Notes: generated by a model not told the origin, from the sequence alone. A DNA stretch of 32,000 nt from Candidatus Thalassarchaeaceae archaeon (GCA_045568075.1 JBJLBP010000001.1:1380001-1412000), one strand, 5' to 3'; shown: positions 1 through 23,794, counted from the stretch's first letter. Program-made: numbers and translations.

Positions 1-540
1 GTTCTCGATACAACACGAAATCTCGTCATAATCTCAGCCCAAGCTACTGATGGCTCCCGTCTCGACTACACATACGACGCCGAAGTTGGCTTCTTCTCCT
101 CGTTCACCTGGACCGATGCCGACGGTGTAGAACAACTCAGAATGCAATTTGCATCTGGCGGTGAAGGCCACACTGGAGAGGTATTCTTCATCCGCGGTGG
201 GGACCTTTACGCAAAAACTTGGGAGAATGCTGGTACCGATGCCGAATTCCGTGACACTTTCTTCGTCAGTAATCACCCGCAGGACGGTGAGTGGAACGAG
301 ATGATCTACTATCTCGACGCAGCTTGCGGAAGTGGTGGTTCGAGTATCACGCTGACGTTGCGCGATCACACTTCGGTCTCTGCTCTCGAGCGCTTTTGGG
401 GACCTGGGGCGGAGGAATATGGGACTCTAGGGACCATACCTTACCCAAGCGAGGAGTACACTCTGACTCTGACCTTCACAGGCGACTCAGATCTACGCCT
501 AATCATCGCCGGCGGAATCACCTATTCATGGTCTATCTGA
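1..540 (+). CDS. C-terminal part of a hypothetical protein (5' end lies outside the window)
   Basis: Frame 1 is open from base 1 to the TGA at 538-540. The listed 142..540 ORF is therefore only the tail of a longer gene. No family recognised. The next gene starts 9 nt downstream. Confidence 0.5.
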   Translation, partial: VLDTTRNLVIISAQATDGSRLDYTYDAEVGFFSSFTWTDADGVEQLRMQFASGGEGHTGEVFFIRGGDLYAKTWENAGTDAEFRDTFFVSNHPQDGEWNEMIYYLDAACGSGGSSITLTLRDHTSVSALERFWGPGAEEYGTLGTIPYPSEEYTLTLTFTGDSDLRLIIAGGITYSWSI

Positions 541-549
541 GGTAGCCAA

Positions 550-1143
550 ATGGCCAATGGCACACTTGTCATGCTCCATGGGATGACCGGGACCTCTGAC
601 AAAATGCAGCCGCTCGCTGAGCGACTTTGCCCGAGCGGCTGGGATGTATTATGCCCACAAGCCACCATCGAACATCCAACTCGTGGTGGCTTTGCTTGGT
701 GGCTGCGGGCAGATGACCCGACACTGCCTCTAGATGATTATTCGATGGGGCAGGTCGACGAATCGATGCAGCAGGTAATCAGTCAGATGCCCGATGGACC
801 GCTAATAGTAGGTGGGTTTTCTCAGGGTGGAGCGATTGCTTCCGCCCTACTCGAGACTGACTTGCAAGAGCGTATCCTCGGTCTCGTCCTTCTCGGAACC
901 AAGACTGTTAGACCAGATTCACTGACTGCTTGTCTGCCATTTCTTCATCCGCGCGAAGTAGTCTGGATGCATGGCTCGCGCGATCACTTGGTTCCTATGC
1001 ATCTAGCAGTTGAACAAGTTGAGATCTTTGAGGCGGCCGATTGGCCAGTCACTCGCCTCGAACATGAGAAGGGACATATGGTCAATCTCAATCAATTCGA
1101 TGAACTCAAAGCAGCCATCCAAAGGATGACTGATTCGGCCTGA
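550..1143 (+). CDS. alpha/beta hydrolase, phospholipase/carboxylesterase (Abhydrolase_2-like) family
   Basis: 197-aa ORF. LHGMTG near the N-terminus, nucleophile elbow GFSQGG, then SRDHLVP and KGHMV in the Ser-Asp-His order typical of this family. SD-like TGAGGT lies 8 nt upstream of the ATG. Confidence 0.8.
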   Translation: MANGTLVMLHGMTGTSDKMQPLAERLCPSGWDVLCPQATIEHPTRGGFAWWLRADDPTLPLDDYSMGQVDESMQQVISQMPDGPLIVGGFSQGGAIASALLETDLQERILGLVLLGTKTVRPDSLTACLPFLHPREVVWMHGSRDHLVPMHLAVEQVEIFEAADWPVTRLEHEKGHMVNLNQFDELKAAIQRMTDSA

Positions 1144-1164: not shown

Positions 1165-1434
1165 TCAGTCGAGATATTTGATCAGATGATCTGAGCCACC
1201 TACGAAGAGAGGTGTATCCCCTCTCATATCGAGGCATACTGGCACCGTTCGATGCCCGGTTTCTCTCACTACCTCAAAGCGAAGATCGCCCTCATGGTCG
1301 AAATTGACTACGGTGTAAGAGAGGTCCTTTGAGTCCAAAACTCGCTTTGCCACTGTGCAATAACGGCAGACTGTCTGAGTGAACAGAAGGAAGTCTGTCT
1401 CGCAGGATTCAAGCCAGTGCTGCATGCTCGTCAA
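1165..1434 (-). CDS. glutaredoxin-like small redox protein (CxxC = CRYC)
   Basis: 89 aa. FTQTVCRYCTVAKRVL active-site region, later RTVPVCL and GGSDHLIKYL, matching the glutaredoxin/NrdH fold pattern (CPYC...TVP...GG). Confidence 0.75.
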   Translation of the reverse strand: MTSMQHWLESCETDFLLFTQTVCRYCTVAKRVLDSKDLSYTVVNFDHEGDLRFEVVRETGHRTVPVCLDMRGDTPLFVGGSDHLIKYLD

Positions 1435-1481: not shown

Positions 1482-4400
1482 TCATGCAGCTGTGACAGGG
1501 TCACCGCCTCCATCCTCATCCCACCAAGCGGACTCTCCTAAATCGGCATCCATGATTTCATTATCCTCGGATTTGTTCTCTAGAACCTTATTGCACTCAT
1601 CAGGATCGATGAAGAAGAGGAAAACCACTGTAATCATAGTTAGAGCAGCCCCCACATAGATGGCAGTTGAGTAGTTATTATTGAAAAGATCCAGCATTGT
1701 TCCTGTGAATGTGTAGGCCATTACAGCAGATAGGTTGAACATTGACATATAGGCTGTAAATTGTGTACCTCCAACCTTACTCCAAGTCATCTTCATCGCC
1801 ACGGCAATTACACAAATCCAAGCAACTCCGTTAATCAGACCTCGGATTATCAAGTAAGTTGTCATGATTGCAGTATTGGTCCAGTATGGCTGTAGAACTG
1901 CCAACAGAGCGTTTGCAGCGGCGAGACAGGTGAATCCAATCATAGCCACCTTCCTGACTCCGTACCTATCTCCTAGCATACCACCGGAGATTTGGCCAAG
2001 CATCGTGGCAAAGATAACTACGCCACCGACAATAAGGTTGTACTTCTCCTGCTCCCATCCTGCCCTGTTGATGAAGATGTCAAGCACGATTGGATCGACG
2101 AAGAGGTACAGCTCAGAGAGAAGGCATAGGAAGATCAGCAAGAATGACGATCTTAGTGAGAATGCCTTGGTCAAGTTGAAACTAGTCTGAGCCAGAGTTC
2201 TCCTAGAGGATTGGGGCAACAAAGAAAATGGATTGGGCACTGACAATGACCGGTCTGCTGTTTTCCATAGTTTGGTCGTAACAAAATACACAATTACAGC
2301 GAGTACTAAGCCCCAGAATGCGACTGTCTTAGCCAAACCGTAAATTGGAACTGTCAAGTCCACTGAGACGATTGCGAACAATAGGCCGGATATGAAGATA
2401 AATATCGAGATCATAGTGATAAATGCTGGAAGGGAAATTTTCTCGTTGAATGTGGACTTACCCACGGCCACAGCAGCCCACCACTTCGATTCCTCCGAGT
2501 CCTCCCAGTATAGATTCTCATCTACGAAATCTGAAGCAACAGACTGATCTATTGAGGAAGTGGTTTCATCCTCCTCCGACCTACTGGACCAGGGGAATAG
2601 CCGAGTTCCTGGCTTCTCATAGAGGAACAGTGGTAGGATCATTATCAGAAGAAGCAGTGGCAATTGGATGGATAGCATGCCCCTTATTCCTATCTTGGTA
2701 GCGAATCCTCCTAGAACGGCTCCACCAATGATCATCCCTGCTCGCTTGGATGCAAACATGTACCCATTGGCCTTGGAGACCTCATCATCGAGAAGTACGT
2801 CCACGGCCAGTGCATCGGTACTTACGTCCTGAAGTGAGGCGAATATATTGTGAATGAATAGTAATTTGATTACCAGACCTAGTTCGTTCTTCAAGTCTGG
2901 AATTAGGAGTAGAGTCCCTATGGAAATAGCCATACCGAACTGCGCGAAAATAATCCAAAGCCTCCGAGAGCCAAATTGTGGCATATTCACCGTATCAATT
3001 ACTGGCCCCCAAATCCACTTGAATGTCCAAGGCAGTGCAATTGTGGCGAATAGTGTAGCAATCTCTTGAGGAGTAAGTCCGTTGTCAGCCAGATATGCAG
3101 CGAAGGCGACTGAGGCGAATCCCCAAGGCAAACCCTGAGCGAAGTAAAGGACGCAAAGAGATACCATCCTTCTGATTCTATTCTCAGTCAGACTCTGACT
3201 TTCGAACCACTCTTCTGTAAGTTGTTCTCTGTTGTAGAGTACGAACCCGACTAGGACTGCTAGCATCAGTCCGACTCCGATAATCAGTACGTTTGTGCTA
3301 CTAGCCCCACTAGAGGCGACTGCAGACGCAGGTTGGTCTAGCAGTATCACTCGACGGGCATCGACCGGGGAGACGTGGCCATCATCGACGATAAGCCTAG
3401 CATAAATCGTCGAGTTTCCGGACTCCGAATGCGGATCCAGTTTGATGCTCCATTTTGACCAGTCATCCAGTGGAGAGTCATCATCCGCAATCTTCCATTC
3501 TCCGCCACCTACTCGTACCTCAATCCTAGTCTGACTACCTGGGCTAGATGATCCTACATCTGCTCCGGATGATGAGCCACGTATGTAGCTCTCATTGCCG
3601 ATTTCTTGCATCGTGACGATCTCCATGCTCACATTGAGCGATGTGTCGATGCTTCCTGCTGCCTCCACGAAAGCCATCGGATCGGCCTGACCGTAGCCGA
3701 ATTCGTTGTCAGGGCGAGTCTCGAGAAGGCTGCAATCGTTGAATCCAGGATCGCCTAGACTAATCTCACGCTCGATTGCGTGGGCAGCAAGGATATCCTT
3801 GAATTCGGAATGAGTGAGGTCTGGATTAGCCTCCTTCATCAGAGCCGCGATTCCGGCCATGAGAGGCGTAGCCATGCTGGTTCCAGACTTGCTGGTGTAA
3901 CCATCATTTGTCGCGGCGTCTGGTGCCATGATGTTTGAGCCGATGGTCGAAATGTCGGGCTTAACTCGGCCATCTGAGGTGTAACCTCGGCTAGAGTAGA
4001 TAGCCAATCCGAGATTCTTGTCGAGGGATGCAACCGTGACTGGAAGATTGGCATCTCCTGGGCTGTCGATGGTATTGCAACCGGCAGCAGTGATTCCACC
4101 GAGCTCGTTGCCAGCAGACAGCGTGGTGATGATATCGGACTCTGCGACAGCATCCATCTGTCGGCTCCAAGTGCTTGAGCCATCGTTGTCAAAGTGAACC
4201 TCAAATTGCTGCTCACCCAAAGAGGAGGTGAGGATGTCAATACCGTGACGATCCTTGTTGTCGATGGCCCACTGAGCGCCCTCGATGATGTCCTCAATAT
4301 CCCCCTCACAACAGGCGAGGATGTTGATTACCCAGGCTCCGGGTGCTGTTCCGATGTATCGGGAGCCGTCGGGGGAAGCTTGTCCGCCGCCGGTTCCAGC

Positions 4401-5195
4401 AGCGATGCCAGCCACGTGAGAACCATGAGTTCCCGAATCGAATGACTCGCTGGCTGGCTGTTCTGAATCGGTATATACCGCATCGTAGAATGCCTTGACC
4501 TTCGGATCACAATCAGCTGGAATCGGGTCAGGATTCGGGTCTAGAGGGTTTGGAGGTTCGTCGATACAAGTGAATGGGTCGTCGTCCATATCGTTGAGAC
4601 CTTCGTGGTCTCCTCTGACTCCTGTATCGAGCACAGCAATCGTGACTCCTGTTCCATCAAAGCCGTATTCAGCCCAAACATCGTTGACTCCCATATTCGG
4701 ATTGGCTTCGTTCATGTGAGGTTCCGCCAATCCGAGATCTTCGAGCATAACCAATCCACTGAGCTCGAATAACGGGCTCCCCTCACCAATCAATTCGAGA
4801 GGTATCGATGCACCCAACGTATCGAGATAAGTCGCCCTGAAAGTCACTATGACGCCCATCGACTCAAGAGCCGAAACGTCCGCATCGCTCGGGTGGTGAT
4901 CAAAACCAATGAAGACCCGAGCGTGTCCAGCAGGAGCTCGTCTCCACCAATCCTCTTGGAAATCGACTGGTTGTTCAAGCAACCACTCCAGTCGGTCATC
5001 AATCGAATCATGATCCTTGTCACGGCTCCAATCAAGCCACCACTCATGATGAAGTGGAAGTTCGACGCTTTCCGTCCAAACGCCATCAGCGTCGTAGCCG
5101 CCTCGGCCTTCATTGACTACCAAAGTAGAGGCTGCCATAGGCAGAATCAGTACCAGAATCAATGCACTTGCAACGAGGGTACGGCGTCCTACCAT
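1482..5195 (-). CDS. membrane protein fusing an N-terminal secreted subtilisin-like (S8) protease to a C-terminal AmpG/PAT-family MFS permease
   Basis: The 1304-aa ORF is trimmed to Met68 (ATG at 5195-5193). There a signal/anchor sequence RRTLVASALILVLILPMAAS begins, and the overlap with the upstream kinase gene disappears. S8 triad motifs in D-H-S order: AVLDTGV, THGSHVAGIAAGTG, SGTSMATPLMAG. A single TM helix VLIIGVGLMLAVLVGFVLY lies at about 3234-3290. The MFS half aligns by eye to E. coli AmpG: LYFAQGLPWGF, FKWIWGPVIDT...FGSRR, and SLQDVSTDALAVDVL. Confidence 0.85.
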   Translation of the reverse strand: MVGRRTLVASALILVLILPMAASTLVVNEGRGGYDADGVWTESVELPLHHEWWLDWSRDKDHDSIDDRLEWLLEQPVDFQEDWWRRAPAGHARVFIGFDHHPSDADVSALESMGVIVTFRATYLDTLGASIPLELIGEGSPLFELSGLVMLEDLGLAEPHMNEANPNMGVNDVWAEYGFDGTGVTIAVLDTGVRGDHEGLNDMDDDPFTCIDEPPNPLDPNPDPIPADCDPKVKAFYDAVYTDSEQPASESFDSGTHGSHVAGIAAGTGGGQASPDGSRYIGTAPGAWVINILACCEGDIEDIIEGAQWAIDNKDRHGIDILTSSLGEQQFEVHFDNDGSSTWSRQMDAVAESDIITTLSAGNELGGITAAGCNTIDSPGDANLPVTVASLDKNLGLAIYSSRGYTSDGRVKPDISTIGSNIMAPDAATNDGYTSKSGTSMATPLMAGIAALMKEANPDLTHSEFKDILAAHAIEREISLGDPGFNDCSLLETRPDNEFGYGQADPMAFVEAAGSIDTSLNVSMEIVTMQEIGNESYIRGSSSGADVGSSSPGSQTRIEVRVGGGEWKIADDDSPLDDWSKWSIKLDPHSESGNSTIYARLIVDDGHVSPVDARRVILLDQPASAVASSGASSTNVLIIGVGLMLAVLVGFVLYNREQLTEEWFESQSLTENRIRRMVSLCVLYFAQGLPWGFASVAFAAYLADNGLTPQEIATLFATIALPWTFKWIWGPVIDTVNMPQFGSRRLWIIFAQFGMAISIGTLLLIPDLKNELGLVIKLLFIHNIFASLQDVSTDALAVDVLLDDEVSKANGYMFASKRAGMIIGGAVLGGFATKIGIRGMLSIQLPLLLLIMILPLFLYEKPGTRLFPWSSRSEEDETTSSIDQSVASDFVDENLYWEDSEESKWWAAVAVGKSTFNEKISLPAFITMISIFIFISGLLFAIVSVDLTVPIYGLAKTVAFWGLVLAVIVYFVTTKLWKTADRSLSVPNPFSLLPQSSRRTLAQTSFNLTKAFSLRSSFLLIFLCLLSELYLFVDPIVLDIFINRAGWEQEKYNLIVGGVVIFATMLGQISGGMLGDRYGVRKVAMIGFTCLAAANALLAVLQPYWTNTAIMTTYLIIRGLINGVAWICVIAVAMKMTWSKVGGTQFTAYMSMFNLSAVMAYTFTGTMLDLFNNNYSTAIYVGAALTMITVVFLFFIDPDECNKVLENKSEDNEIMDADLGESAWWDEDGGGDPVTAA

Positions 5196-5248
5196 GGGTA
5201 GGACGAATCTAATGCCATGTTTGAGGGTTCGCCCGGAATAATTCGCTC

Positions 5249-6100
5249 TCAGCAAATCGCGACTCCTTCTTCCTCGAAATCCCAGTCGATTATTTCCCAA
5301 CCTAATCTCTCGATGTCTGAACGGACTGATGATACATGCATCGGATTGCACAACAAAGCAGCGCATCCACCCGCTCCTGCTCCCAAGGCTTTCCAAGCCA
5401 TTACCGTACCACTGCTAAGCAATGGATCGATGACTGAGCGGAATGGATCGTGTATCGAGGGATCGATCAAATCGACCCCTCGGCAGACCTCGTTGAGAGC
5501 CTCGACGACCAGTTGTCGCTGGTCTCTCTGGAGAGCATCTACCATGGTCCGGGAAGAGAGTCTGATGGCCTTCAGACCCTCGATGACCTGAGCGTCGCCC
5601 TCATCGTAACGTGACCAGACGCGATTCTGGATATCCCCTGATTTGTGAGAGATTCCCGAGTGGGCGATTAGGAGATGTTTTTTCAGCCATTTTCGGGCTG
5701 ATGGCGCTGGCTCGAATGGCAATCTTTCGACCGAGTCAGCGATGAATAAAAATCGGTTGAAACCGCCGTGTGTTGCGGCCCATTGATCCTGGCGACCGCA
5801 GCGGTTTCCCGCCGCATTTTCAGCTTGGTAGGCGGCTTCTGCTAATTCATCTGGTGACATCGCTTCGATACCTTGCAGTGCGGCGATTTTAGCGACGTTC
5901 AGGGCTCCGCTTGTCCCGAGTCCTGAGCCCGCAGGGACATCGAAGCTGAACGAAACTTGACCAGCACCATCTGAGTGGGCTGTGACGTACTTGTTGATGG
6001 TGAAATTGACGACCTCCCCCCCGAAGTCATTGGTGAATGGTACAAGGTCGGTCCAGCCTCCTGTGAGATCCACTCGGAGCGGAGCCCGGACAGTTACCAT
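5249..6100 (-). CDS. GHMP-family sugar kinase (HddA/fucokinase-like)
   Basis: 283 aa. N-terminal RAPLRVDLTGGWTDL, GHMP ATP-binding motif PAGSGLGTSGALNVA, and GRQDQWAATHGGFN. All three are typical of the HddA/fucokinase branch of GHMP kinases. Confidence 0.8.
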   Translation of the reverse strand: MVTVRAPLRVDLTGGWTDLVPFTNDFGGEVVNFTINKYVTAHSDGAGQVSFSFDVPAGSGLGTSGALNVAKIAALQGIEAMSPDELAEAAYQAENAAGNRCGRQDQWAATHGGFNRFLFIADSVERLPFEPAPSARKWLKKHLLIAHSGISHKSGDIQNRVWSRYDEGDAQVIEGLKAIRLSSRTMVDALQRDQRQLVVEALNEVCRGVDLIDPSIHDPFRSVIDPLLSSGTVMAWKALGAGAGGCAALLCNPMHVSSVRSDIERLGWEIIDWDFEEEGVAIC

Positions 6101-7498: not shown

Positions 7499-8101
7499 AT
7501 GTTCACCGGCATCGTGGCTGGGATTAGTCAGATTACTGCCATCGAGGACGGCGAAGAGATTCGCAGTTTTGTTGTGGACCTCGCTGGATTCGACGAGGGG
7601 CTCGAGGTCGGAGCAAGTGTCGCGCTTGATGGCGTTTGCATGACTGTGGTCTCAATTGAGGGTACGGTGGTTCGCTTCGATGCGATACCTGAGACTCTTG
7701 ATCGAACGACCCTGGGTGGCTTGGTTGCGGAGGATTGGGTGAATGTTGAGCGCTCACTTCGCATGGGTGATGAGCTCGGTGGTCACATCCTTTCTGGACA
7801 CATTTTGATGACTGCGCGGATTCTGCAACGAACTGAGCGTGGTGAGGGTGTCGACTTGTTAATCGAGAATCCTACCGAAGCTATTCCGTACATTCTGGAG
7901 AAGGGCTATGTCGCTGTCGATGGAATGTCATTGACAGTTGGTGAGGTTAGTGAGTCTAGCTTCGCCTTACACATTATTCCCGAAACGCTGAGGGTCACGA
8001 CGATAGGTGAGAAGCAAGTCGGCCATTCTGTGAATATCGAGATTGATTCTCGCACTCAGGCTGTTGTCGACACGATTCGACGTATGGGGGTGGAGTCGTG
8101 A
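7499..8101 (+). CDS. ribE: riboflavin synthase, bacterial/eukaryal (two-barrel) type
   Basis: Start at the ATG at 7499, 2 nt after the ribL stop, giving the canonical MFTGIV N-terminus. There is an internal duplication of the lumazine-binding barrel: VGASVALDGVCMTV and GYVAVDGMSLTV. Confidence 0.9.
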   Translation: MFTGIVAGISQITAIEDGEEIRSFVVDLAGFDEGLEVGASVALDGVCMTVVSIEGTVVRFDAIPETLDRTTLGGLVAEDWVNVERSLRMGDELGGHILSGHILMTARILQRTERGEGVDLLIENPTEAIPYILEKGYVAVDGMSLTVGEVSESSFALHIIPETLRVTTIGEKQVGHSVNIEIDSRTQAVVDTIRRMGVES

Positions 8102-8493
8102 GGATCGCAGCGGTGTGTGGTTCCTTTCACAAGGCAGAGGTTGAGCAGATGCTTGAGCATGCGCGCGACGAAGCCGTCTCGAAGAATGCAGAGGTGACTG
8201 AGGCTGTCTGGGTTCCTGGCTCGATGGAAGCGCCATTGGCCTTGGAGAGATTGCTGATGCGAGAGGATGTCGATGGGGCGATTGCACTTGGTATAATCGA
8301 GCGTGGTCAGACTCAACACGGTCTGGTCATGGGTCAATCGGTTACCCGTGCTATCATCGAATTGCAAATCAAACACAACAAGCCGATTGGACTTGGAATT
8401 ATTGGGCCTGGGGCTGAGCCAGAACACATTGAACCCCGCCTTGAACCGCATGCCCGCGCCGCTGTCGGCGCGGTAATCGCAATGCAGAATTGA
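8098..8493 (+). CDS. ribH: 6,7-dimethyl-8-ribityllumazine synthase (short archaeal type)
   Basis: 131 aa. GTG start overlaps the ribE stop (GTGA). VPGSMEAPLALERLL...DVDGAIALGIIERGQTQHG...KPIGLGIIGPG matches the archaeal lumazine synthase pattern. Confidence 0.85.
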   Translation: MRIAAVCGSFHKAEVEQMLEHARDEAVSKNAEVTEAVWVPGSMEAPLALERLLMREDVDGAIALGIIERGQTQHGLVMGQSVTRAIIELQIKHNKPIGLGIIGPGAEPEHIEPRLEPHARAAVGAVIAMQN

Positions 8494-8535
8494 GTGTAGA
8501 ATCTCAGACTCTTCTCGCCTTCAAGCGACAGCATA

Positions 8536-8551
8536 CATGATTGAAATCATG
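8536..8551. promoter_or_regulatory. perfect palindrome CATGATT-GA-AATCATG between ribH and trxB
   Basis: 7-bp inverted arms with a 2-nt spacer, read directly. It lies 43 nt after the ribH stop and about 80 nt before the trxB ATG. It could be an operator or a weak terminator stem. Confidence 0.3.
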
Positions 8552-8631
8552 CTGCAAGGGTTCCAAAGTCAGTATCAAAGCACAAATCACGAGAGTCAAT
8601 GTTCAAAGAACGCCGAACATTGGGTGAGGTT

Positions 8632-9561
8632 ATGTCCGACGAAGTCCGCAATGCCATCATCATCGGTTCGGGACCGGCGGGATATACTGCAGGACTGTAT
8701 TCGGCCCGAGCGATGCTTGAACCTCTGATGTTTGCAGGCTACGCCTCTGGCGGTCAATTGATGCTAACTTCCGACGTCGAAAACTTCCCTGGCTACCCGC
8801 AAGGGATTGGAGGTCCAGATATGATGATTCAGTTGCGCGAGCAGGCTGAGAGATTCGGACTCGAGGTGCATGACAAGAATGTCGAGCGCGTCGATGTTAG
8901 CGAGCGCCCGTTCAAGGTCTGGGTCGAAGGAGAGGAATTCCGTGCTCAGACCTTGATTATCTGTACTGGTGCTGAAGCAATTTGGCTAGGTGTCGAAGGA
9001 GAGGATGCTCAGAAGGGTCGTGGAATTAGCACCTGTGCTACTTGTGATGGAGCATTTTTCCGAGATGAGGAGATTATCGTTGTCGGCGGTGGCGATTCAG
9101 CGATGGAAGAAGCAACATTCCTCACGCGGTTTGCAAGCAAGGTTACCATCGTCCACCGGCGTGATGTTTTCCGCGCATCGAAAGTAATGTACGACCGTGC
9201 AGCTGTACATCCCAAAATCGAGATCAAGACCTTTCGCTCAGTAAAACAGTGGTTATCTGATGAAAATGGCCTAACTGGTGCACTGCTCGAAGACCCACGA
9301 GATGGTTCAACTGAGGAAATCGCTTGTAACGGAGCGTTCATCGCTATCGGTCATACTCCGATTACCTCGTTCCTTGAAGGTCAAGTTGAGATCGATGAAT
9401 CAGGTTACATCTTGCATCATGAACACACGATGACCAGCGTCCCGGGTGTATTCGCAGCCGGTGATGTCGTCGATACTCGATACCGACAGGCGGTTACTGC
9501 AGCAGGAATGGGCTGTCAGGCAGCTATCGACGCAGAACGATGGCTGGAAGATCAGCACTGA
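8632..9561 (+). CDS. trxB: thioredoxin-disulfide reductase
   Basis: Start placed at the ATG at 8632, preceded by GGTGAGGT. FAD motif IIGSGPAGYTAG, redox-active CATCDGAFF, NADPH motif VVGGGDSAMEEA, and C-terminal GVFAAGDV. Confidence 0.9.
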   Translation: MSDEVRNAIIIGSGPAGYTAGLYSARAMLEPLMFAGYASGGQLMLTSDVENFPGYPQGIGGPDMMIQLREQAERFGLEVHDKNVERVDVSERPFKVWVEGEEFRAQTLIICTGAEAIWLGVEGEDAQKGRGISTCATCDGAFFRDEEIIVVGGGDSAMEEATFLTRFASKVTIVHRRDVFRASKVMYDRAAVHPKIEIKTFRSVKQWLSDENGLTGALLEDPRDGSTEEIACNGAFIAIGHTPITSFLEGQVEIDESGYILHHEHTMTSVPGVFAAGDVVDTRYRQAVTAAGMGCQAAIDAERWLEDQH

Positions 9562-9611: not shown

Positions 9612-10787
9612 ATGAATGAGTCGTCTTTCCTCATGTGCGTGCCAGATGAACTGACTGCGGCCGAACGCGCCCGATACGCACGTCATCTGATGCTCCCAGA
9701 GATGGGGGAAGAGGGTCAGAAGCGCCTACTCGAAGCCTCTGTGATGGTCATCGGAGCTGGAGGTTTGGGGTCTCCGGCGCTTCTGTATCTAGCTGCTGCA
9801 GGTATCGGACGCATCGGCATCATCGATGACGATCGCGTCGATATCACAAATTTGCAGCGGCAGGTAATCCACGCCACCGCCTCCGTAGGATCACTCAAGG
9901 TCGAATCAGCGGCTATCAGAATCAATCAGTTGAATCCGGAAGTCGAGGTAGTAAAGCACGAAGTTAGACTCAATGTCGAAAATGCGCTCGAATTACTTGC
10001 GGGATACGATGTCATCATTGATGGAACCGACAACTTCCCCACTCGTTACACAGTGAGCGACGCATGTGAAATCCTAGGGACTCCGTGGGTCTTCGGAAGC
10101 ATCCACCGATTTGAGGGGCAAGTCAGCGTCTTCAATCACGAAGGTGGGCCCAATTATCGTGATTTATTCCCTAGCGCTCCACCTCCTGAACTTGCTCCGA
10201 ATTGCGCGGAGGCGGGAGTTCTCGGAGTTCTACCTGGAATCGTTGGCAGCATTCAGGCTGCCGAGGCGATCAAACTGATTCTTGCTGTTGGTGAGCCTCT
10301 CTCGGGCCAATTGCTCGCGATTGATGCTAAGACAATGAGGATGCGAGCGCTAACATTTGAGCGAGATGCGAACCGCGAGGCAGTTAGAGAAATGTCAGAA
10401 GAGCTGGTAATGGCAGCGTGTGCAAGTCAGCAAGGTGAGCCAGAGCCAGCACCAGGTGAAGTTCTGGAGATTACGCCCGCCGACTTTGTCCAGAGGAAAA
10501 CTTCTGGTTGGAATCCATTCCTACTCGATGTTAGGCGGGCAACTGAGGAATCGATTGTATCCTTGCCAGAAACCGACCTACGAATCACACACATTTCTGT
10601 CCCATCACGCTCAGAGGAGATTCCACAAGATCGTGATATCGTTGTCTATTGCCGAGTTGGTGGCCGATCGAACGCTGTTGCGCACTGGCTGGGGCAGGCA
10701 GGCTGGAACCGTGCACGAATCTGGAACATGGTTGGTGGGGTTCATCTCTGGGCTGATCAAGTAGATTCGGCGGTTCCCAAGTATTGA
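9612..10787 (+). CDS. moeB: ThiF/MoeB-family adenylyltransferase with C-terminal rhodanese domain (MoeZ/UbaA-like E1)
   Basis: 391 aa. RYARHLMLPEMGEEGQKRL, nucleotide loop VIGAGGLGSPALLYLAAAGIG, DDDRVDITNLQRQ. The C-terminal rhodanese region has the active-site loop VVYCRVGGRS. Confidence 0.85.
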   Translation: MNESSFLMCVPDELTAAERARYARHLMLPEMGEEGQKRLLEASVMVIGAGGLGSPALLYLAAAGIGRIGIIDDDRVDITNLQRQVIHATASVGSLKVESAAIRINQLNPEVEVVKHEVRLNVENALELLAGYDVIIDGTDNFPTRYTVSDACEILGTPWVFGSIHRFEGQVSVFNHEGGPNYRDLFPSAPPPELAPNCAEAGVLGVLPGIVGSIQAAEAIKLILAVGEPLSGQLLAIDAKTMRMRALTFERDANREAVREMSEELVMAACASQQGEPEPAPGEVLEITPADFVQRKTSGWNPFLLDVRRATEESIVSLPETDLRITHISVPSRSEEIPQDRDIVVYCRVGGRSNAVAHWLGQAGWNRARIWNMVGGVHLWADQVDSAVPKY

Positions 10788-16292: not shown

Positions 16293-18299
16293 ATGGGAGA
16301 TTCAGCCGTTATTCGGACCCGATTGATCGCATTCTCGATACTCGGGATGATGTTGGTTCCAGCACTTGCTGCGGCCCTCCCTGCAGTCTCGAACCCCCAG
16401 CAAATCTCCAACACTTACGCTGAACAAATTGGCGAGTGGTGGGAAGATACCAGCATGGATCGCGATGGAGATTACATTCACGATGCGATTTGGATTGCCG
16501 CACAGAACAATCACTACGAGTATCTCGATGATGCTGGAAGGATTTCCGTAATCGTTGATTTCGACCATACGCCGACGGAGGCCGACCAAGCCATGCTAGA
16601 ATGGGAGGTCGGCTTTCAGACACAGTTCCGGTACTGGTTGATTGACTCCATTGCTGGAACTGTCGAGCTTAGTCTCATACACAATCTGCTCGAGTTGCCT
16701 GGTGTAGTCTTCATCGAATTGGATGGGATTTTGGAAATCAAAATGGAAGATGTCGTCCCAGCTCACGGAGTCGACCTAGTTTGGCAAGACACCGGCTACA
16801 CTGGCGCTGGAGTGACCATGGCCATAATCGATACTGGAATCGATGGAAATCACTCTGGTTTGGATGATTTGGATGATGACAATAGTACAAACGATACGAA
16901 AGTAATAGCATTCTACGACGCGATCAATAATCCGGGGGCGACCAATGGAAGCGAAATTTTCCCCTATGACGATAATGGGCATGGAACTCATTGCGCTGGA
17001 ATAACCGCAGGAACTGGGGCACCTACATTCCAACACGTTGGTGTTGCGCCACATGCCAATTTAGTAGGCGTGAAAGTTCTGAGTGGGAGTGGGAGTGGCT
17101 CTTTTGCACAAGTTATGGCAGGCATGCAATGGACCGTCGAAAAGAGACATGAGTTCAATATCAGAGCTGCCAGTATGAGTCTTGGCGGCCCTGGCCCGAT
17201 TGAGTGGACTTCCGCGGAAGAGGAATCTGTCAATAGAATGGCAAATGAGATGATGAGATCAGGAGTGGCTCTTTTCATAGCAGCAGGAAATAGCGCCGGA
17301 AGTGCAACTATCGGCACACCAGGTAGTGCTGAAGACGTGATTACTGTAGGTGCATTGGACAAGGATACCGCAATTGCGGTATACTCCAGTCAGGGACCAA
17401 CTGAAGAAGGGCGGATTAAGCCAAATCTGGCATTTGTAGGCAGCAGTGTAAACGCTCCTGATGCGAATACTGGGGACGGTTACGTCGCTCTGTCAGGGAC
17501 TAGTATGGCTACTCCGGGTGCAGCGGGTGTGGGTGTCTTGATGTTCCAAGCGAACCCAGATCTCAGTCCATTCGATATTCGTAACATTATGCAGGAGACT
17601 TCTACTTACAGACAGTGCCACTACATGTTTGCAAACGAACCCTGCGCTGAGGACCTGATTCCTAAGAATCGTCAGAATAACGTATACGGGCACGGACATG
17701 TCAACGCTCAACCTTCAGTCGAAGAGGCCGCGAATTACCACTACGAACTCAGTATGTCGCTGAATGTGACACTTGAGAGCGAGTATGGAATGGATAATCG
17801 AGTGCACATCGGTCAAGGGGATTCGATTGTATTCAACTTGGAAGGTGGAATTCAGCGAGTACAATGGCGCACTTGGGATATGCGAGATAATTGGATGGAT
17901 CTGGCTGAGTTTTCTGTTGGCGACGAGACTTTTGAGGTTACACACGGGCTGTTAGTGGACCGGCTCCGTTTCCTTCCAAACAACACTGTCGAAGGTGACC
18001 AAGTGGTTCTGGTTCGCGCCATCTCTGGTGACGAGTCTTCAACCAATCTAGCCGTTGGGATCCATGTGATGGGTGAAGAAAAGATGGCTGAGAGTGGTGG
18101 AGCTGGATCACTGATGGGGCTGATTGTCGGTGTACTAGCATTACTGGTTCTCGTGCTCCTGGGCGTGCTCGCTTTCGCGGGAGTTCAACTGCGTGAAAGG
18201 GGCTACTTTGACAATGAAGAAGAGTATGATCAGGAGATGGATGCCGCCGTCGAATCAATGATGAGCGGTGACGATGACGCAGTTGATGATGGCGATTGA
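16293..18299 (+). CDS. membrane-anchored subtilisin-like serine protease (S8)
   Basis: 668 aa. Signal peptide LIAFSILGMMLVPALAAALPA, propeptide-like region, and triad motifs MAIIDTGIDGNH, HGTHCAGITAGTG, SGTSMATPGAAG. C-terminal TM helix LIVGVLALLVLVLLGVLAFAG is followed by an acidic tail. Its N-terminal half resembles the protease half of the 1482..5195 fusion. Confidence 0.9.
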   Translation: MGDSAVIRTRLIAFSILGMMLVPALAAALPAVSNPQQISNTYAEQIGEWWEDTSMDRDGDYIHDAIWIAAQNNHYEYLDDAGRISVIVDFDHTPTEADQAMLEWEVGFQTQFRYWLIDSIAGTVELSLIHNLLELPGVVFIELDGILEIKMEDVVPAHGVDLVWQDTGYTGAGVTMAIIDTGIDGNHSGLDDLDDDNSTNDTKVIAFYDAINNPGATNGSEIFPYDDNGHGTHCAGITAGTGAPTFQHVGVAPHANLVGVKVLSGSGSGSFAQVMAGMQWTVEKRHEFNIRAASMSLGGPGPIEWTSAEEESVNRMANEMMRSGVALFIAAGNSAGSATIGTPGSAEDVITVGALDKDTAIAVYSSQGPTEEGRIKPNLAFVGSSVNAPDANTGDGYVALSGTSMATPGAAGVGVLMFQANPDLSPFDIRNIMQETSTYRQCHYMFANEPCAEDLIPKNRQNNVYGHGHVNAQPSVEEAANYHYELSMSLNVTLESEYGMDNRVHIGQGDSIVFNLEGGIQRVQWRTWDMRDNWMDLAEFSVGDETFEVTHGLLVDRLRFLPNNTVEGDQVVLVRAISGDESSTNLAVGIHVMGEEKMAESGGAGSLMGLIVGVLALLVLVLLGVLAFAGVQLRERGYFDNEEEYDQEMDAAVESMMSGDDDAVDDGD

Positions 18300-18846
18300 C
18301 AAGGCAATCATCCTCGCCGCCGGAGCGAGCGAGCGTTTGGGTGAACCCAAGGCCCTCGTCCAGTTGACTAATGGCTTGACACTTGTTGAATTCATGGCAA
18401 ATCTACTACATTCTTACCAGCTTGAAGTAATCGTCGTAACACGGGAAAACTTAGTCCAACCAATAGGTCATATTCTCAAGGAATTGGGAGCGAAAATCGT
18501 TCTCAATCGCGACCCTGAGGCGGGGCGCACTGGCAGTATCCAATGTGGGTTGAGAGCCATAGGAAGCGGACCGGTTCTCATCGCACCTGTCGACCGCCCT
18601 GGATTCGGTAGCGAAACCATCGAAGCCATGCTCGAGGCTGGCACCACCGCTTGCCCAGTCTATGGTGGGCGCGGTGGACATCCAATCGCACTCTCAGCGT
18701 CGGATTGTGAACGAGTTCTCAAAGCCGCACCAGACACGCCGCTACATGACCTCATAGAACCGCAGCGTATCGAGGTAGATGCGCCTCATCTTCATCTCAA
18801 TATCGACACCAAAGAAGATGTTGAGGAACTTCTCCGAATCTACTAA
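18286..18846 (+). CDS. mocA: MobA/MocA-like molybdenum cofactor nucleotidyltransferase
   Basis: AIILAAGASERLGEPKALV N-terminal motif and the ~190-aa size of the MobA-like NTP-transferase family. Candidate ATG starts at 18286 and 18289 overlap the protease stop at 18299. It is linked to XdhC and an XDH-family enzyme. Confidence 0.7.
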   Translation: MMAIDKAIILAAGASERLGEPKALVQLTNGLTLVEFMANLLHSYQLEVIVVTRENLVQPIGHILKELGAKIVLNRDPEAGRTGSIQCGLRAIGSGPVLIAPVDRPGFGSETIEAMLEAGTTACPVYGGRGGHPIALSASDCERVLKAAPDTPLHDLIEPQRIEVDAPHLHLNIDTKEDVEELLRIY

Positions 18847-18865
18847 GATGCTGAAAGGCCTCAAC

Positions 18866-18888
18866 CGATGTTGAACTACAAAACATCG
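18866..18888. terminator. hairpin CGATGTT-(9 nt)-AACATCG between convergent genes
   Basis: 7-bp perfect inverted repeat in the 76-bp gap between the mocA-like gene (+) and the permease gene (-), read directly. Confidence 0.25.
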
Positions 18889-18922
18889 TCATTGAGTTCA
18901 AAACAACGAAAATCGAGGGAAA

Positions 18923-20191
18923 TCAGGGCTGGAGAAGTCTCTCGATTTCGGGATATTCCCCCATTGCCCAGAGGAAAGCAAGACCGATGAGAAGAGCAGG
19001 TAGTGTAGTGTGAATTGTTGCCCAAATCGAGGCGGTCTTGTGCCTGACCAGAAGTGGGAACAGAGCATCGCCGTCCTGTGATATTGCATTAGCAACCAGT
19101 GCAGGGAAGGATATGATGCCCTCGACATATGCGGTGATGGCGATAATCTGAGGTCCGCAACCGGGGATCAGACCAATACCGGCTGCGACGAAAACCGCCC
19201 CGACACCAGCACCATGCTCGGCGAAGTCACCATCATCCATACCGAAAGCAATCATTCCGAAAGCGAAGGCAAGGTAAGCGATGAGAACCCAGAATGTGAC
19301 GAAGGCGGTTTCCGAAGCAGCGTGAACGAGGGTTTCATCCAACGAATGCAACTTGTCTCCAATCGTCGCTTCTGTATCATCAGAAAAGAAATTTTTCGAT
19401 GAAAGATAGAGAATAATCGAAAGCGATGTTCCAATCAACCCCACCCATGTGATTAGACCATCTCGAGTCATCGGATCCCATGCGAGTTCGGGCGCGTATT
19501 CGGCGTCTTGAGCATACCAAAAGAGTAGCATAATCGCGAGAACTAAACCAACTGCTGTGACTGCCCACCAAACTCGATAACCTTGGTGAATAATCTGGTA
19601 ACCCAAGCCATCTGGTACTTCTCTAGGAAGATCATCGAGCACCGAATCCTTGCTTTGCAAATCTAAACCAACATCGTCTTCCAACTGCTTGGCGGCCTCT
19701 TCCCCCAGCGATTCCTTCGAGCCAAAGGTTGGGCCGAATCGGCCCAGTGGACGAGAGGGAGTGACACCGATTGCATCAGCCCCGTACCCCCACGCGACTC
19801 CTACGAAGAATGAGGTCGCGTGGACGATTAAGACCGGCGCGAGAAATTCTGGATTTTGGAAGACCGCGCCGATTAGAACGAAAGCAGCATCGCCAAGAGT
19901 GGCGATGAGTGTGGCGATCACGGTGCCATAAGTGACGTAGCCACGAGTATACATTGGCATGATGATGATTGCACCACCGCAACCGGGAGTCAGACCCATG
20001 AAGGCACCGAGGGTCGGTTGCCAGCGCTTATTGTCGCGAATCCATTCAACAAAACGGCCCGCAGTAATGTATTGCAACCAACTGAACAAAAGCACCATCG
20101 CAGCTACGAAAACTGTGACTGCAAGAAAGGCGTCTCGCATCGAAATGACGAGAATTTCGAGCGCCTCACCAACGGTGATGTTGAACGCCAC
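18923..20191 (-). CDS. polytopic membrane permease with duplicated PGCG motif (possibly the ArsP_2/DUF2899-like putative metal transporter family)
   Basis: 422 aa with about 10 hydrophobic segments. Two related motifs, GLTPGCGGAIIIMPMY and GLIPGCGPQIIAITAY, sit in the two halves. GTG start at 20191. The family name is from memory and is tentative. Confidence 0.6.
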   Translation of the reverse strand: MAFNITVGEALEILVISMRDAFLAVTVFVAAMVLLFSWLQYITAGRFVEWIRDNKRWQPTLGAFMGLTPGCGGAIIIMPMYTRGYVTYGTVIATLIATLGDAAFVLIGAVFQNPEFLAPVLIVHATSFFVGVAWGYGADAIGVTPSRPLGRFGPTFGSKESLGEEAAKQLEDDVGLDLQSKDSVLDDLPREVPDGLGYQIIHQGYRVWWAVTAVGLVLAIMLLFWYAQDAEYAPELAWDPMTRDGLITWVGLIGTSLSIILYLSSKNFFSDDTEATIGDKLHSLDETLVHAASETAFVTFWVLIAYLAFAFGMIAFGMDDGDFAEHGAGVGAVFVAAGIGLIPGCGPQIIAITAYVEGIISFPALVANAISQDGDALFPLLVRHKTASIWATIHTTLPALLIGLAFLWAMGEYPEIERLLQP

Positions 20192-20322
20192 GGAGCGCCT
20201 CGGTTGGTATCAACCATATCAAAGTTAGCCGAGGCTAACTCTTGACTAGTGAGGAGAAAGGCGTCGCTATTATCGCAATGATATCGGACACAACTCCAAA
20301 ACGGACATGCGTATCGCGCTCT

Positions 20323-21156
20323 ATGACCAGCGCCACGCTCGCTTGGGTCCTCGAGAGGCTCGGATGCGGTGATCGGGTTGCGCTCGCCTCTGTCGTCGAA
20401 GCAAGTGGTAGTGTTCCGGGCAAGCCAGGAGCGCGCATGGCTGTGACCAATCGCGGTAGAAGGCACGGCACTGTCGGTGGTGCGGGTTTAGAACTCAAGG
20501 TGGAGAATCATCTCAACCAAATGCTTGTCAATGGATCGAATGCAAGTCGAATCGAAACATACGTGCTACATAGAGATGCGAAGGGCCAAGAAGTAACCGC
20601 TCTCAACAGCCTTTGCGGCGGTCGCGTGACCGTCTCTCTGGAGGTGCTTGAACCAATGCCACACATACTGATTGCTGGCGGTGGACATTGTGGGCAAGCG
20701 ATAGCTGCCGCCTGCGATAATCTCGGATGGTCTCACAGCGTCTACGACATTCGCTCGGAATATGCTGCAGGCGACCTATATCCGAACGCCGTCGAGAACC
20801 ATGATGGAGACGTGGACGGCTTTGTAGCAAGCCTCGCAGATGAAGGTTTTCTGCGCTTCTCAGATATTCTTCTGCTCGGCCACGATTGGGCGGTCGACCA
20901 AGACCTGCTAATCGGGATGCTTCGAGCCCGTGGAGAAGAGTTACGACCGCGTATCGGAGCGATTGGTTCGCGCTCGAAATGGAAGGCTTTCAGTCAAGCT
21001 CTAATCGATGCCGGAATCACCCAAACAGCAATCGATTCTGTTCGCTGTCCAATCGGCATCGACATCGGCGCAGAGAGTCCTGAAGAAATTGCAATCGCCG
21101 TCTGCGCCGAGATCATGGCACTAGAGAAAGGCACTCTCATGAACGACGAAAACTGA
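20323..21156 (+). CDS. xdhC: XdhC/CoxI-family molybdoenzyme maturation protein
   Basis: RVALASVVEASGSVPGKPGARMAV...GTVGGAGLE (XdhC N-domain pattern) and a Rossmann-like ILIAGGGHCGQAIAAA (XdhC C-domain). Start placed at the ATG at 20323. Upstream in-frame ATG 20278 and TTG 20242 are alternatives. Confidence 0.85.
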   Translation: MTSATLAWVLERLGCGDRVALASVVEASGSVPGKPGARMAVTNRGRRHGTVGGAGLELKVENHLNQMLVNGSNASRIETYVLHRDAKGQEVTALNSLCGGRVTVSLEVLEPMPHILIAGGGHCGQAIAAACDNLGWSHSVYDIRSEYAAGDLYPNAVENHDGDVDGFVASLADEGFLRFSDILLLGHDWAVDQDLLIGMLRARGEELRPRIGAIGSRSKWKAFSQALIDAGITQTAIDSVRCPIGIDIGAESPEEIAIAVCAEIMALEKGTLMNDEN

Positions 21157-21167
21157 AAGGTGTCCGG

Positions 21168-22409
21168 ATGGGCCGCAGAATCATGCGTCCAACCGCAATC
21201 GCGCTCGTACTGATGTTATCATCTGCGATGCTCAGCGGTTGCATTTGGGATGATGAAGTCACAACCAACGTACCCGAAGTCGAAGATGATGGTTTTCGAG
21301 CCTTCAGTGTAGTCGCCCCAATCGACACTGGAATCAACGTCTACCACGACCACTTTCGGACTAACGAAACACTCCCTGATTGGATGCTTGAACAATTTGG
21401 CGTGACAATGACTTGTGAATTGACCTTCGAGGGTACTTGGGAGGATCGTTATGAGGCTGATAGAGCGACTTGCTGGGACCTCATCAACGCTACCGATATC
21501 GTTTACTTCCCCGGCACCAGAATCATCGGCGCTACACCCGATGATGATACAGATATTCCAATCCTTGACGACCCTCAAGACGGTCACGGCACGGCAGTCA
21601 CAGGAGCGGTCCTAAACGCCAATCCAGACGCTGTGATTTTCTTCGTCGAGGGTTTCTCCGATGCAGCGGTTCTAGCAGCAGCAAACCAGCCGCTTGTTGA
21701 CATCATTACTACCAGTTTCGGGCCGATAGGATCGGTACCTGTCACCGGTATCGAACAAGCGACTAAGGTCGCAGTGGTCCATAACAAGAAAATTCACACT
21801 GGAGCCGCCGACAATTCACCTTCACCCGCGGTGCAAGACGCTACAGCCGGCCCACCTTGGAGCATAGGCATCTCAGGATATGCTGAGGAGGATGACGATC
21901 AGAAAGAGACCATGAGCGGCTCCTATCCAGACGCTGCTGCGGATTGGACCCAAGTCCTTCCAAACCACGACGATATCGATGGATACCATCAGACCAGCGG
22001 CACCTCATTCGCAACACCGCGAACCGCTGGCCTGCTCTCCAAAGTTCTCCAACACCTGCGCGAGGAATTCGGCGATGACTCAAGCGGTGCCGACCCTATA
22101 GTGCGCAGTGGCCTCATCGTCAACGGAACAGATTACTCGGCCACCGAAACGGACATCCGCAACGCCCTCAATCTCTCAGGGTGGTATCCAAGTGCCAATA
22201 CTTGGGACCCGACATCTGGAACAATGCCGATCTCACCCATCGCTCCCTGCACACAGGTTGGTTGGGGAGTCGTCAATGAGTCGAACGTCCTACCGATGAT
22301 CAAACATCTGAATGGCACTGAACAGATGCCAAATCGACCCTCGGACGTAGTTCAATGCATGGCGGCTAACCAAGCGATGCGAGAAGCCTATTGGTCCTTC
22401 AGAGCCTGA
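21168..22409 (+). CDS. divergent S8-family peptidase, probable lipoprotein
   Basis: 413 aa. Signal sequence with lipobox-like LSGC. D-H-S order motifs APIDTGINVYH, DGHGTAVTGAV, TSGTSFATPRTAG. AAGGTG lies 8 nt upstream. The gene starts 12 nt after the xdhC stop. Confidence 0.7.
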   Translation: MGRRIMRPTAIALVLMLSSAMLSGCIWDDEVTTNVPEVEDDGFRAFSVVAPIDTGINVYHDHFRTNETLPDWMLEQFGVTMTCELTFEGTWEDRYEADRATCWDLINATDIVYFPGTRIIGATPDDDTDIPILDDPQDGHGTAVTGAVLNANPDAVIFFVEGFSDAAVLAAANQPLVDIITTSFGPIGSVPVTGIEQATKVAVVHNKKIHTGAADNSPSPAVQDATAGPPWSIGISGYAEEDDDQKETMSGSYPDAAADWTQVLPNHDDIDGYHQTSGTSFATPRTAGLLSKVLQHLREEFGDDSSGADPIVRSGLIVNGTDYSATETDIRNALNLSGWYPSANTWDPTSGTMPISPIAPCTQVGWGVVNESNVLPMIKHLNGTEQMPNRPSDVVQCMAANQAMREAYWSFRA

Positions 22410-22518
22410 TATTCTTACAAAAATAAACCAAATAGGCGAGATTCTTCGGTTTCTCTCGTCACTTCACAGCGACACTTTAAGCCCGGTCAATTGAATACTA
22501 CCGCCACAATTTCGTGCC

Positions 22519-23166: not shown

Positions 23167-23220
23167 GTCCGTAGGACTCAGACCGAAGCGTAATAGGACA
23201 ACCATCAGTGGATTCGACGC

Positions 23221-23790: not shown

Positions 23791-23794
23791 TTCG

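Follow-up and report, generated by a model that had tools for sequence, protein, structure and literature searches.

A subtilase–permease fusion protein in Thalassarchaeaceae and its possible role in coupled proteolysis and uptake

Can one polypeptide digest protein outside an archaeal cell and also carry the products inside? The question is raised by a gene in a 32,000-nt stretch of the genome of Candidatus Thalassarchaeaceae archaeon (GCA_045568075.1 JBJLBP010000001.1:1380001-1412000), referred to here as the window. An earlier note, made from the sequence, described positions 1482..5195 as one open reading frame (ORF) that joins a secreted subtilisin-like (S8) protease to an AmpG/PAT-type permease of the major facilitator superfamily (MFS), and suggested a device for cleaving and importing peptides or peptide-glycan fragments. 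Our analysis shows that the fusion is real and that this Thalassarchaeaceae archaeon, a member of Marine Group IIb, encodes it as one membrane protein. As to its function, we lean slightly towards a tethered exo-protease that would be coupled to proton-driven uptake of its own products.

A protease and a permease in one reading frame

As the earlier note had it, the frame is uninterrupted; it lies on the minus strand and runs from an ATG at 5195 through 1237 codons to a TGA at 1482-1484. A longer mechanical ORF (1482..5396) opens upstream at a TTG at 5396; the N-termini of homologues, whose consensus opens with MxxRR, support the ATG at 5195 as the start. From the N-terminus onward, the protein comprises a signal peptide, a propeptide-like region, an S8 catalytic domain, a beta-rich domain, a transmembrane (TM) helix here called TM0, and a 14-helix MFS permease (Table 1).

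Such a frame might be an artefact in which adjacent protease-TM and permease genes were joined by a frameshift or an assembly error, and an unfused paralogue in the same window (16293..18299) shows that a protease with a TM helix can stand alone. However, when 5.8 billion proteins were searched, 627 matches were returned, and the best 120 of these were all full-length fusions (1223-1330 residues, 60-96% identity); more than 120 full-length fusion protein clusters were found. A locus scan restricted to one genome per prokaryotic species gave 78 loci, nearly all labelled Poseidoniales, Thalassarchaeaceae, Thalassarchaeum, Marine Group II or broader archaeal names, and those closest to the window's gene (96% identity) were from Thalassarchaeaceae. 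A single ORF with the DTG, GTSMATP and FKxxWGP motifs was present in 50 of the 53 full-length species-representative loci, which are independent assemblies that include apparent single-cell genomes and a long-read-style contig; the other three contain runs of N. Close relatives have no stops in the fusion frame. Both halves, on either side of the junction, are maintained by purifying selection: ratios of nonsynonymous to synonymous substitution rates (dN/dS), computed against 96%-identical relatives, were 0.03 for S8, 0.00-0.04 for the beta domain, 0.08-0.10 for the N-terminal and 0.15-0.21 for the C-terminal half of the MFS domain, and 0.34-0.41 for its central insertion. Frameshift or misassembly is thus excluded, and the probability that we would assign to an artefact is negligible.

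The survey of related genomes that the earlier note had proposed placed the full-length fusion in more than 50 species-level Poseidoniales genomes with fixed synteny, namely thioredoxin-reductase-like, RibC, RibL, RibB, (GHMP kinase), fusion gene, glutaredoxin, (esterase) and a 320-aa secreted protein; the fusion spans two orders of Poseidoniia. In Marine Group III, an S8-MFS clade of about 50 clusters is 41-48% identical over the full length and sits in a different gene context; its S8 domain is ~61% identical to that of the window, vs 33% overall for the in-genome paralogue. Some of the fusions bear the JGI annotation 'subtilisin family serine protease/MFS family permease', and others just 'MFS transporter'. 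One locus (L054, NZWI01000049.1) is labelled 'Candidatus Neomarinimicrobiota bacterium', yet its gene order is archaeal and includes the fusion gene; the contig has probably been mis-binned.

The surface-exposed subtilase looks catalytically competent, judging from its residues and relatives. Pfam Peptidase_S8 (PF00082) matches residues 181-502 across the full profile (1-288; E=1e-46, 159.9 bits vs a cut-off of 21.8), and the nearest solved relative is the archaeal subtilase Tk-SP (3afg/9ues; E~1e-33), with which the triads align. D190 (AVLDTGV), H257 (THGSHVAG), the oxyanion residue N363 (SAGN) and S440 (SGTSMATP) stand in the order of the family and are invariant across a 50-sequence alignment of Marine Group IIb and III proteins reaching down to 42% identity, so that the triad named in the earlier note was correctly placed. 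AlphaFold2 (AF2) strands at residues 506-620 likewise bear out its beta-rich domain. A Pfam scan of the fusion protein gave no I9 propeptide match; the AF2 secondary structure of residues ~91-155 is beta-alpha-beta-beta-alpha-beta, at modest confidence. Altogether the ectodomain comprises ~600 acidic residues and, by hydropathy, contains nothing hydrophobic between residues 8-26 and TM0. The paralogue at 16293..18299, 33% identical to the fusion protein over residues 51-539, has the layout previously described for it: signal, propeptide, S8, one TM helix (residues 610-628) and an acidic tail. A Tat-type signal, considered in view of the conserved N-terminal RR, was set aside, as a 15-helix membrane protein would not be a plausible Tat substrate.

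The extra helix expected near 3234-3290 was found and extends over 3234-3305 (residues 631-654; by hydropathy alone, 636-654). No basic residue occurs in the 15 positions before TM0 and four Arg occur in the next 21, a positive-inside bias. The layout of 1+6+2+6 = 15 helices starts outside the cell and finishes in the cytoplasm. Hydropathy and AF2 agree with the self-consistent topology that had been claimed, in which the protease is outside and the MFS domain starts on the cytoplasmic side. The linker between the beta domain and TM0, read directly from the sequence, is only ~10-15 residues long, and the protease would therefore be held near the membrane. The AF2 model of residues 600-1237, built from a more diverse alignment than the full-length run, had a predicted local distance difference test (pLDDT) score of 81.7 and a predicted template modelling (pTM) score of 0.80. 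The central insertion of the permease is a feature of the Marine Group IIb clade; it is poorly conserved, and shorter or absent elsewhere.

Relationship of the permease to AmpG

The permease half matches Pfam MFS_1 (PF07690; E=2e-26, 93 bits vs a cut-off of 33.4) and, over residues 680-759, Acatn (PF13000; E=5e-9, 35.6 bits vs a gathering cut-off of 23.7), the latter match covering only positions 5-85 of a 546-position profile. The best NCBIfam match was TIGR00901 (AmpG family; residues 675-1190, E=2e-33), and the nearest solved sequences in a HMMER comparison with the PDB were AmpG and then SLC33A1. A Foldseek search of the PDB with the model of residues 600-1237 also placed AmpG first (E=2e-12, TM-score up to 0.81 normalised to target), with EfpA, MHAS2168 and SLC33A1 as runners-up; there were 272 matches at E<=0.001, and all 50 of those listed are MFS transporters. 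HMMER, run against the PDB chains of AmpG, gave the same alignment of the AmpG motifs that the earlier note had made by eye. Motif A (WGPVID734...FGSR744R) aligns with W65-P67-D70-R80 of AmpG, and its D and R are invariant in the 50-sequence alignment. However, the curated AmpG cut-offs were missed (TIGR00901, 115.5 vs 350; NF008238, 61 vs 756; NF008867, 68.7 vs 656). The AmpG/PAT assignment thus stands for nearest relative by sequence and fold, and fails for membership in AmpG as curated.

The residues of E. coli AmpG whose functions have been analysed (PMC11568325) were then located in the fusion protein and in 33 family representatives. Across the 33 representatives, AmpG K62, W65, P67, D70, R80, W83, D125, D129 and D134 are conserved (in the fusion protein K726, W729, P731, D734, R744, W747, D790, D794 and D799, in that order). 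The Lys/Asp/Asp cluster of TM2 and TM4 is the one proposed for proton coupling in AmpG, and it is kept in the fusion permease. Other positions differ across the same representatives, in which Trp takes the place of Tyr59, Leu that of Ser123, Ala that of Lys132 and either Lys or Ser that of Tyr152; the fusion protein itself has W723, A797 and K817 at the sites of Tyr59, Lys132 and Tyr152. In AmpG, Tyr59, Lys62, Asp125, Asp129 and Tyr152 bind the disaccharide, and Tyr152 is required for function (PMC11568325). The Lys235/Asp238 cluster of the AmpG C-domain is not kept in the fusion-protein family and the TM13/14 vestibule is absent, nothing helical following TM12 (residues 1175-1195) and the tail being acidic and disordered. 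Since the cut-offs are missed, the sugar-binding tyrosines replaced and TM13/14 absent, we judge the permease not to be a bona fide AmpG; it is a PAT-lineage MFS protein that is probably proton-coupled.

AmpG (the anhydromuropeptide:H+ symporter of Gram-negative bacteria, TC 2.A.1.25; 9c3f, 8zgz, 8zke, 9j9z) is nevertheless the best match to this half, and shares with it motif A, the TM2 lysine and the three TM4 aspartates. Identity in structural alignments is only ~17-19%, and the extra helices of the fusion protein lie in the central loop between TM6 and TM7, whereas those of AmpG are at the C-terminus. The fusion protein also differs in its N-terminal TM0 and 600-residue ectodomain, and in its host, a murein-less archaeon, as the earlier note had supposed; the absence of murein from archaea is established. 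In function, AmpG imports a glycopeptide, a peptide-bearing fragment made by extracytoplasmic hydrolases (PMC11568325).

One might therefore ask whether the protein scavenges glycopeptides or muropeptides with AmpG-like specificity, taking up peptidoglycan debris or glycoprotein fragments that the protease trims outside the cell. The nearness of AmpG in sequence and fold, the retained equivalents of K62, D125 and D129, and the glycoside-hydrolase-type domains of distant family members (see below) speak for this possibility. It has to contend with the unmet cut-offs, the changes of Tyr59 to Trp, Tyr152 to Lys and Lys132 to Ala, and the loss of both Lys235/Asp238 and the vestibule; the muropeptide or peptide-glycan import of the earlier note is not supported by these findings. 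Subtilases, moreover, are not known to cut the D-amino-acid stem peptides of murein. We regard this explanation as improbable.

The nearest characterised relatives, AmpG and SLC33A1, move substrate toward the cytosol, and acetyl-CoA is among the known substrates of the PAT family. This direction of transport argues against a permease that exports a precursor for the tethered protease to mature outside, in the manner of LanP/NisP for lantibiotics. The structural neighbours after AmpG do include the MFS exporters EfpA and NorA, and protease-transporter fusions of export type exist (C39 peptidase-ABC). However, precursor or biosynthetic genes are absent nearby, the synteny being fixed with riboflavin, thioredoxin-reductase and glutaredoxin genes, and an M28 aminopeptidase or a cupredoxin in the position of S8 (see below) is unlike the removal of leader peptides. 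Export followed by processing is thus very unlikely.

A sensor (transceptor) role, in which the ectodomain makes or binds a ligand and the MFS domain signals or admits an inducer, has its precedent in the part that AmpG plays in beta-lactamase induction, where imported fragments act as bacterial signals (PMC11568325); partner proteins could dock on the long acidic loop and the tail in the cytoplasm. Yet a regulator adjoined the gene in none of the 78 loci, and the conserved coupling residues speak for genuine transport; such a role seems highly improbable.

Ectodomain exchange and the possible coupling of cleavage and uptake

When the MFS half was compared with 1.84 billion representatives, 4070 relatives emerged, of which 210 had E<1e-30. 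Most are plain permeases of 410-470 residues (30-41% identity) from Thermoplasmatota and bacteria, named 'PAT family ... AmpG' by the JGI pipeline; the closest all carry long N-terminal extensions. The ectodomain types on this TM0-MFS chassis are S8 (Marine Group IIb and III), M28, a plastocyanin-like cupredoxin and two Cys-containing kinds without an assigned family. TM0 opens with an F-F-x-P-F/W motif whatever ectodomain is attached, and therefore belongs to the conserved chassis. Proteins with Peptidase_M28 and MFS domains form about 57 clusters (844-960 residues); their M28 domain keeps the metal-ligand motifs in alignment with the leucyl aminopeptidase 1amp, and their downstream neighbours are homologous to those of the S8 locus (glutaredoxin, 51%; esterase, 54%; secreted protein, 56%). 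The cupredoxin, of plastocyanin/azurin type, is joined through the same TM0 in a 660-residue protein (P0126; 33 cluster members; loci L084 and L085) that was found on short contigs only. At the loci of about 10 species (L068-L078), a domain that does not look like a protease replaces S8 in identical synteny, with an MFS domain that is 53% identical. The replacing ectodomain (L068 5086-7764, L069-L078; P0121, P0486, P0123, P0128) has ~260 residues, contains Cys and reads MYFWG...CW..F...GYGEI...FRMYYS...EFPI; it had no match in Pfam and none among PDB sequences, even by profile.

In a neighbour-joining tree of the MFS domain, all of the ectodomain-MFS versions fall in one Poseidoniia clade (Marine Groups II and III), and the proteins with uncharacterised ectodomains branch within the S8 fusions of Marine Group IIb; this tree is rough, carries no bootstrap and is relied on only where synteny or the shared TM0 motif agrees. 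The whole locus is common to the S8 and replaced-ectodomain versions, and the downstream neighbours are common to these two and to M28. Since orthology thus extends over the whole locus for the replaced version and over the downstream neighbours for M28, these versions represent one gene with an exchanged ectodomain. In more distant members of the MFS family (P0231, P0168, P0207), TM12 is followed by one further helix and then a C-terminal domain, which is an MGH1-like glycoside hydrolase accompanied by carbohydrate-binding domains (GH65C, F5/8C), a 3-keto-disaccharide hydrolase or a set of FG-GAP repeats; this is a mirror-image layout of hydrolase on permease.

These observations bear directly on coupling, for which recurrence is the main support: an S8 endopeptidase and an M28 aminopeptidase, whose folds are unrelated, are both found on one transporter clade, and glycosidase-type domains on its more distant relatives. 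The M28 fusion to the same MFS clade, with the same downstream neighbours, lends independent support to the cleave-and-import idea of the earlier note. On this reading, which we infer, the protease remains joined to the permease, transport is inward, the product of the protease is what the permease carries, and the closeness of the two matters. Once the protein had been exported and its signal peptide and propeptide presumably removed, an active endoprotease of subtilisin type would stand with its beta-rich stalk on the outer face of the membrane. It would be held there by the short linker and by TM0, and TM0 runs directly into the 14-helix permease of AmpG/SLC33A1 (PAT) lineage with its motif A and Lys/Asp/Asp cluster. 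Dissolved or particle-bound protein would be cut at the cell surface, and the adjoining permease would take in the resulting small peptides (or amino acids), powered by the proton gradient. With the protease beside the importer, the cell would therefore capture its own hydrolysis products, which would not be lost by diffusion. Marine Group II archaea are regarded as heterotrophs on protein and peptides that have extracellular S8 and M28 peptidases (PMC6864105, PMC6336850, PMC9723583), and cleavage with import fits this accepted ecology. That a PAT-family protein can carry peptides is indicated by SLC33A1, for which transport of GSSG, a peptide disulfide, from lumen to cytosol has been reported (2026 preprint, PMC12889552).

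A number of results weigh against this reading. The MFS families known to carry peptides (POT) are unrelated to this permease. The cupredoxin and the two uncharacterised ectodomain kinds are not explained by peptide-specific coupling, so the partner need not be a protease, as the L068-L078 loci also illustrate. The segment comprising linker, TM0 and cytoplasmic linker (window 3180-3335) has a dN/dS of ~1.2-2.0 against 96%-identical relatives, from only 55 codons; in the sub-lineage of the window the linker is short and TM0 is without the FFxPF/W motif seen elsewhere. Furthermore, sliding identity along the window's gene shows a switch of nearest relative. Residues 1-500 (pre-pro-S8) are 86-100% identical to loci L059 and L060, whose two flanks are also closest; from about residue 550 on (beta domain, TM0, MFS) the nearest are L002 and L048 (70-100%), and L059 and L060 drop to 30-78%. 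This switch points to intragenic recombination, with a breakpoint directly after the S8 domain at residues ~500-550 (window ~3550-3700), and the protease and permease parts of the gene are therefore from different lineages. Given this mosaic origin, with free recombination between protease and permease, and the weakly conserved linker and TM0, the two halves are not tightly co-adapted. The protease might also be cut off after maturation. The full-length AF2 model (residues 38-1237, 50-sequence alignment; pLDDT 62, pTM 0.48) leaves S8 mostly unmodelled and is too poor for the geometry of protease over permease or the orientation of the active site. Finally, the neighbouring genes are of housekeeping type (thioredoxin-reductase-like, riboflavin, GHMP-kinase, glutaredoxin, esterase) and give no functional hint.

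Several of these points would be expected if TM0-MFS were only a membrane platform or a co-expressed partner, with a permease substrate unrelated to proteolysis. Heterogeneous ectodomains on one chassis, replacement at an orthologous locus, recombination that splits the protease from the rest of the gene and weak constraint on linker and TM0 all suit anchoring or co-localisation, and the unfused paralogue does with a simple TM anchor. However, one helix would anchor the protease at far lower cost than a permease of 14 helices, and two unrelated peptidase families, together with the distant glycosidase-type domains, are hard to square with chance anchoring. The transport residues are conserved and the permease is under purifying selection. 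Anchoring alone is therefore, in our view, unlikely, and we retain coupled cleavage and uptake as the preferred reading. A broader generalisation, which we hold tentatively and with some doubt, is that Poseidoniia possess a modular enzyme-on-transporter system, in which a TM0 plus PAT-type MFS chassis at a largely conserved locus would receive, by recombination, S8, M28, cupredoxin or other modules that each prepare or capture the substrate of the permease.

Neighbouring genes, known systems and significance

The coordinates of the gene, its parts and the adjoining glutaredoxin-like gene are collected in Table 1.

Table 1. Features of the fusion gene and its downstream neighbour (positions in the window; aa, amino acid residues of the fusion protein)
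Feature	Residues (aa)	Position	Strand	Basis
Whole gene: pre-pro-subtilase + TM0 + PAT-like MFS permease, one frame	1-1237	1482..5195	-	Pfam, NCBIfam, 50/53 species-representative loci
N-terminal signal peptide or anchor, MVGRRTLVASALILVLILPMAAS...	1-26	5118..5195	-	Hydropathy peak aa 8-26; homologue consensus MxxRR...LP.A.SS
Propeptide-like region, also in unfused paralogue	27-165	4701..5117	-	Alignment to paralogue 16293-18299 from aa 51
S8 catalytic domain	166-505	3681..4700	-	PF00082, Tk-SP match, invariant residues
Putative catalytic codons: D190 4626-4628; H257 4425-4427; oxyanion N363 4107-4109; S440 3876-3878		within 3681..4700	-	
Beta-rich domain between protease and membrane	506-620	3336..3680	-	AF2 strands
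TM0, extra helix: ectodomain outside, MFS N-terminus inside	631-654	3234..3305	-	Hydropathy 2.79, AF2 helix
Cytoplasmic linker, NREQLTEEWFESQSLTEN, short helix at 656-663	655-672	3180..3233	-	AF2
MFS N-terminal bundle TM1-6: AmpG-type motif A (W729, P731, D734, R744, W747), K726, TM4 D790/D794/D799	673-856	2628..3179	-	
Central insertion: acidic disordered cytoplasmic stretch (~857-921) + extra TM helices 922-943, 950-976	857-994	2214..2627	-	
MFS C-terminal bundle TM7-12	995-1195	1611..2213	-	Pfam, NCBIfam, AF2
Acidic cytoplasmic tail, 14 D/E vs 2 K/R	1196-1237	1485..1610	-	
Glutaredoxin-like gene (CRYC, TVP, GG-D motifs), 47 nt downstream of fusion		1165..1434	-	Pfam Glutaredoxin

A glutaredoxin-like gene adjoins the ectodomain-MFS gene in the 78 loci, often overlapping the MFS stop by ~14 nt; further examples lie at 9698-9961 of locus L002 and 8611-8880 of locus L080, and beside M28-MFS the gene is on the opposite strand. 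In view of the reported carriage of GSSG by the PAT-family protein SLC33A1, a tie to thiol or disulfide peptides is conceivable, and is pure speculation. The secreted protein and, usually, the esterase adjoin every version examined (S8, replaced-ectodomain and M28). In the window the 320-aa secreted protein, usually with an alpha/beta-hydrolase (esterase), corresponds to 142-540 (plus strand, cut by the window end) and 550-1143 (plus strand), and in locus L068 to 8011-8973. Elsewhere in the window, a third, divergent S8-like protein (21168-22409, plus strand; Pfam E=3e-7) has DTG, DGHGT and SGTSFATP motifs and a lipobox-like LSGC ending its signal peptide. Positions 18268-27588 hold a molybdenum hydroxylase cluster of xanthine-dehydrogenase/CO-dehydrogenase type (Fer2_2, MoCoBD, FAD_binding_5, XdhC and a MobA-like transferase) with an HTH_10 regulator in its middle.

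Several known systems resemble parts of this arrangement. A precedent within the family is AmpG1 of Acinetobacter baumannii, which has a periplasmic domain that binds the lytic transglycosylase Slt and so couples cleavage to import (PMC13507758). There, too, a PAT-family importer is physically coupled to an extracytoplasmic hydrolase that makes its substrate; however, the docking is non-covalent and the enzyme cleaves glycan, whereas the fusion has a protease in the same polypeptide. SLC33A1 (AT-1), the second-closest solved relative, shares the Pfam Acatn domain, and its reported transport of GSSG shows that peptides are possible for the PAT family; in contrast, it is a eukaryotic endoplasmic reticulum protein of low identity, without an ectodomain or protease. 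Membrane-anchored archaeal subtilases such as the paralogue and Thermococcus Tk-SP have the same signal, propeptide-like region, S8 domain and C-terminal beta domain, to which the paralogue adds a single TM helix. In these proteins only a short tail follows the anchor, whereas the anchor helix of the fusion runs into a complete permease. Peptidase-containing ABC transporters (PCATs), in which a C39 peptidase is fused to a bacteriocin exporter and substrate passes between protease and transporter, also combine the two activities in one polypeptide. However, the protease of a PCAT is a cytoplasmic cysteine peptidase and its transporter an ATP-driven exporter, and it cleaves and then exports a dedicated precursor, whereas the fusion would serve scavenging and import.

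In the literature we found no description of such a protease-MFS fusion, in keeping with the earlier note, which knew of no characterised one; coverage of subscription journals was incomplete, so that this negative amounts to absence of evidence and no more. In genome surveys of these archaea, S8 and M28 appear as extracellular peptidases alongside ABC oligopeptide transporters, and the fusion goes unmentioned (PMC6864105, PMC6336850). Since annotation is split among 'S8 peptidase', 'MFS transporter' and 'AmpG signal transducer', peptidase surveys and transporter surveys of these archaea may each record just one of the two functions. The components are ordinary; what we found in no paper is the architecture of protease, helix and MFS importer, and the swapping of ectodomains at a conserved locus.

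Marine Group II ranks among the most abundant groups of archaea in the plankton; its members are uncultured and are believed to feed on protein, both dissolved and particulate (PMC6864105, PMC6336850, PMC9723583). Free-living cells in dilute seawater lose the products of extracellular enzymes by diffusion, a problem that the welding of a protease to an importer would answer directly. If Poseidoniia do possess the modular system proposed above, it would be a previously undescribed covalent means by which free-living plankton retain extracellular hydrolysis products. The fusion would also widen the substrate range and the architecture of the AmpG/SLC33A1 transporter family, and domain swapping at one locus would be a route to new nutrient-acquisition devices.

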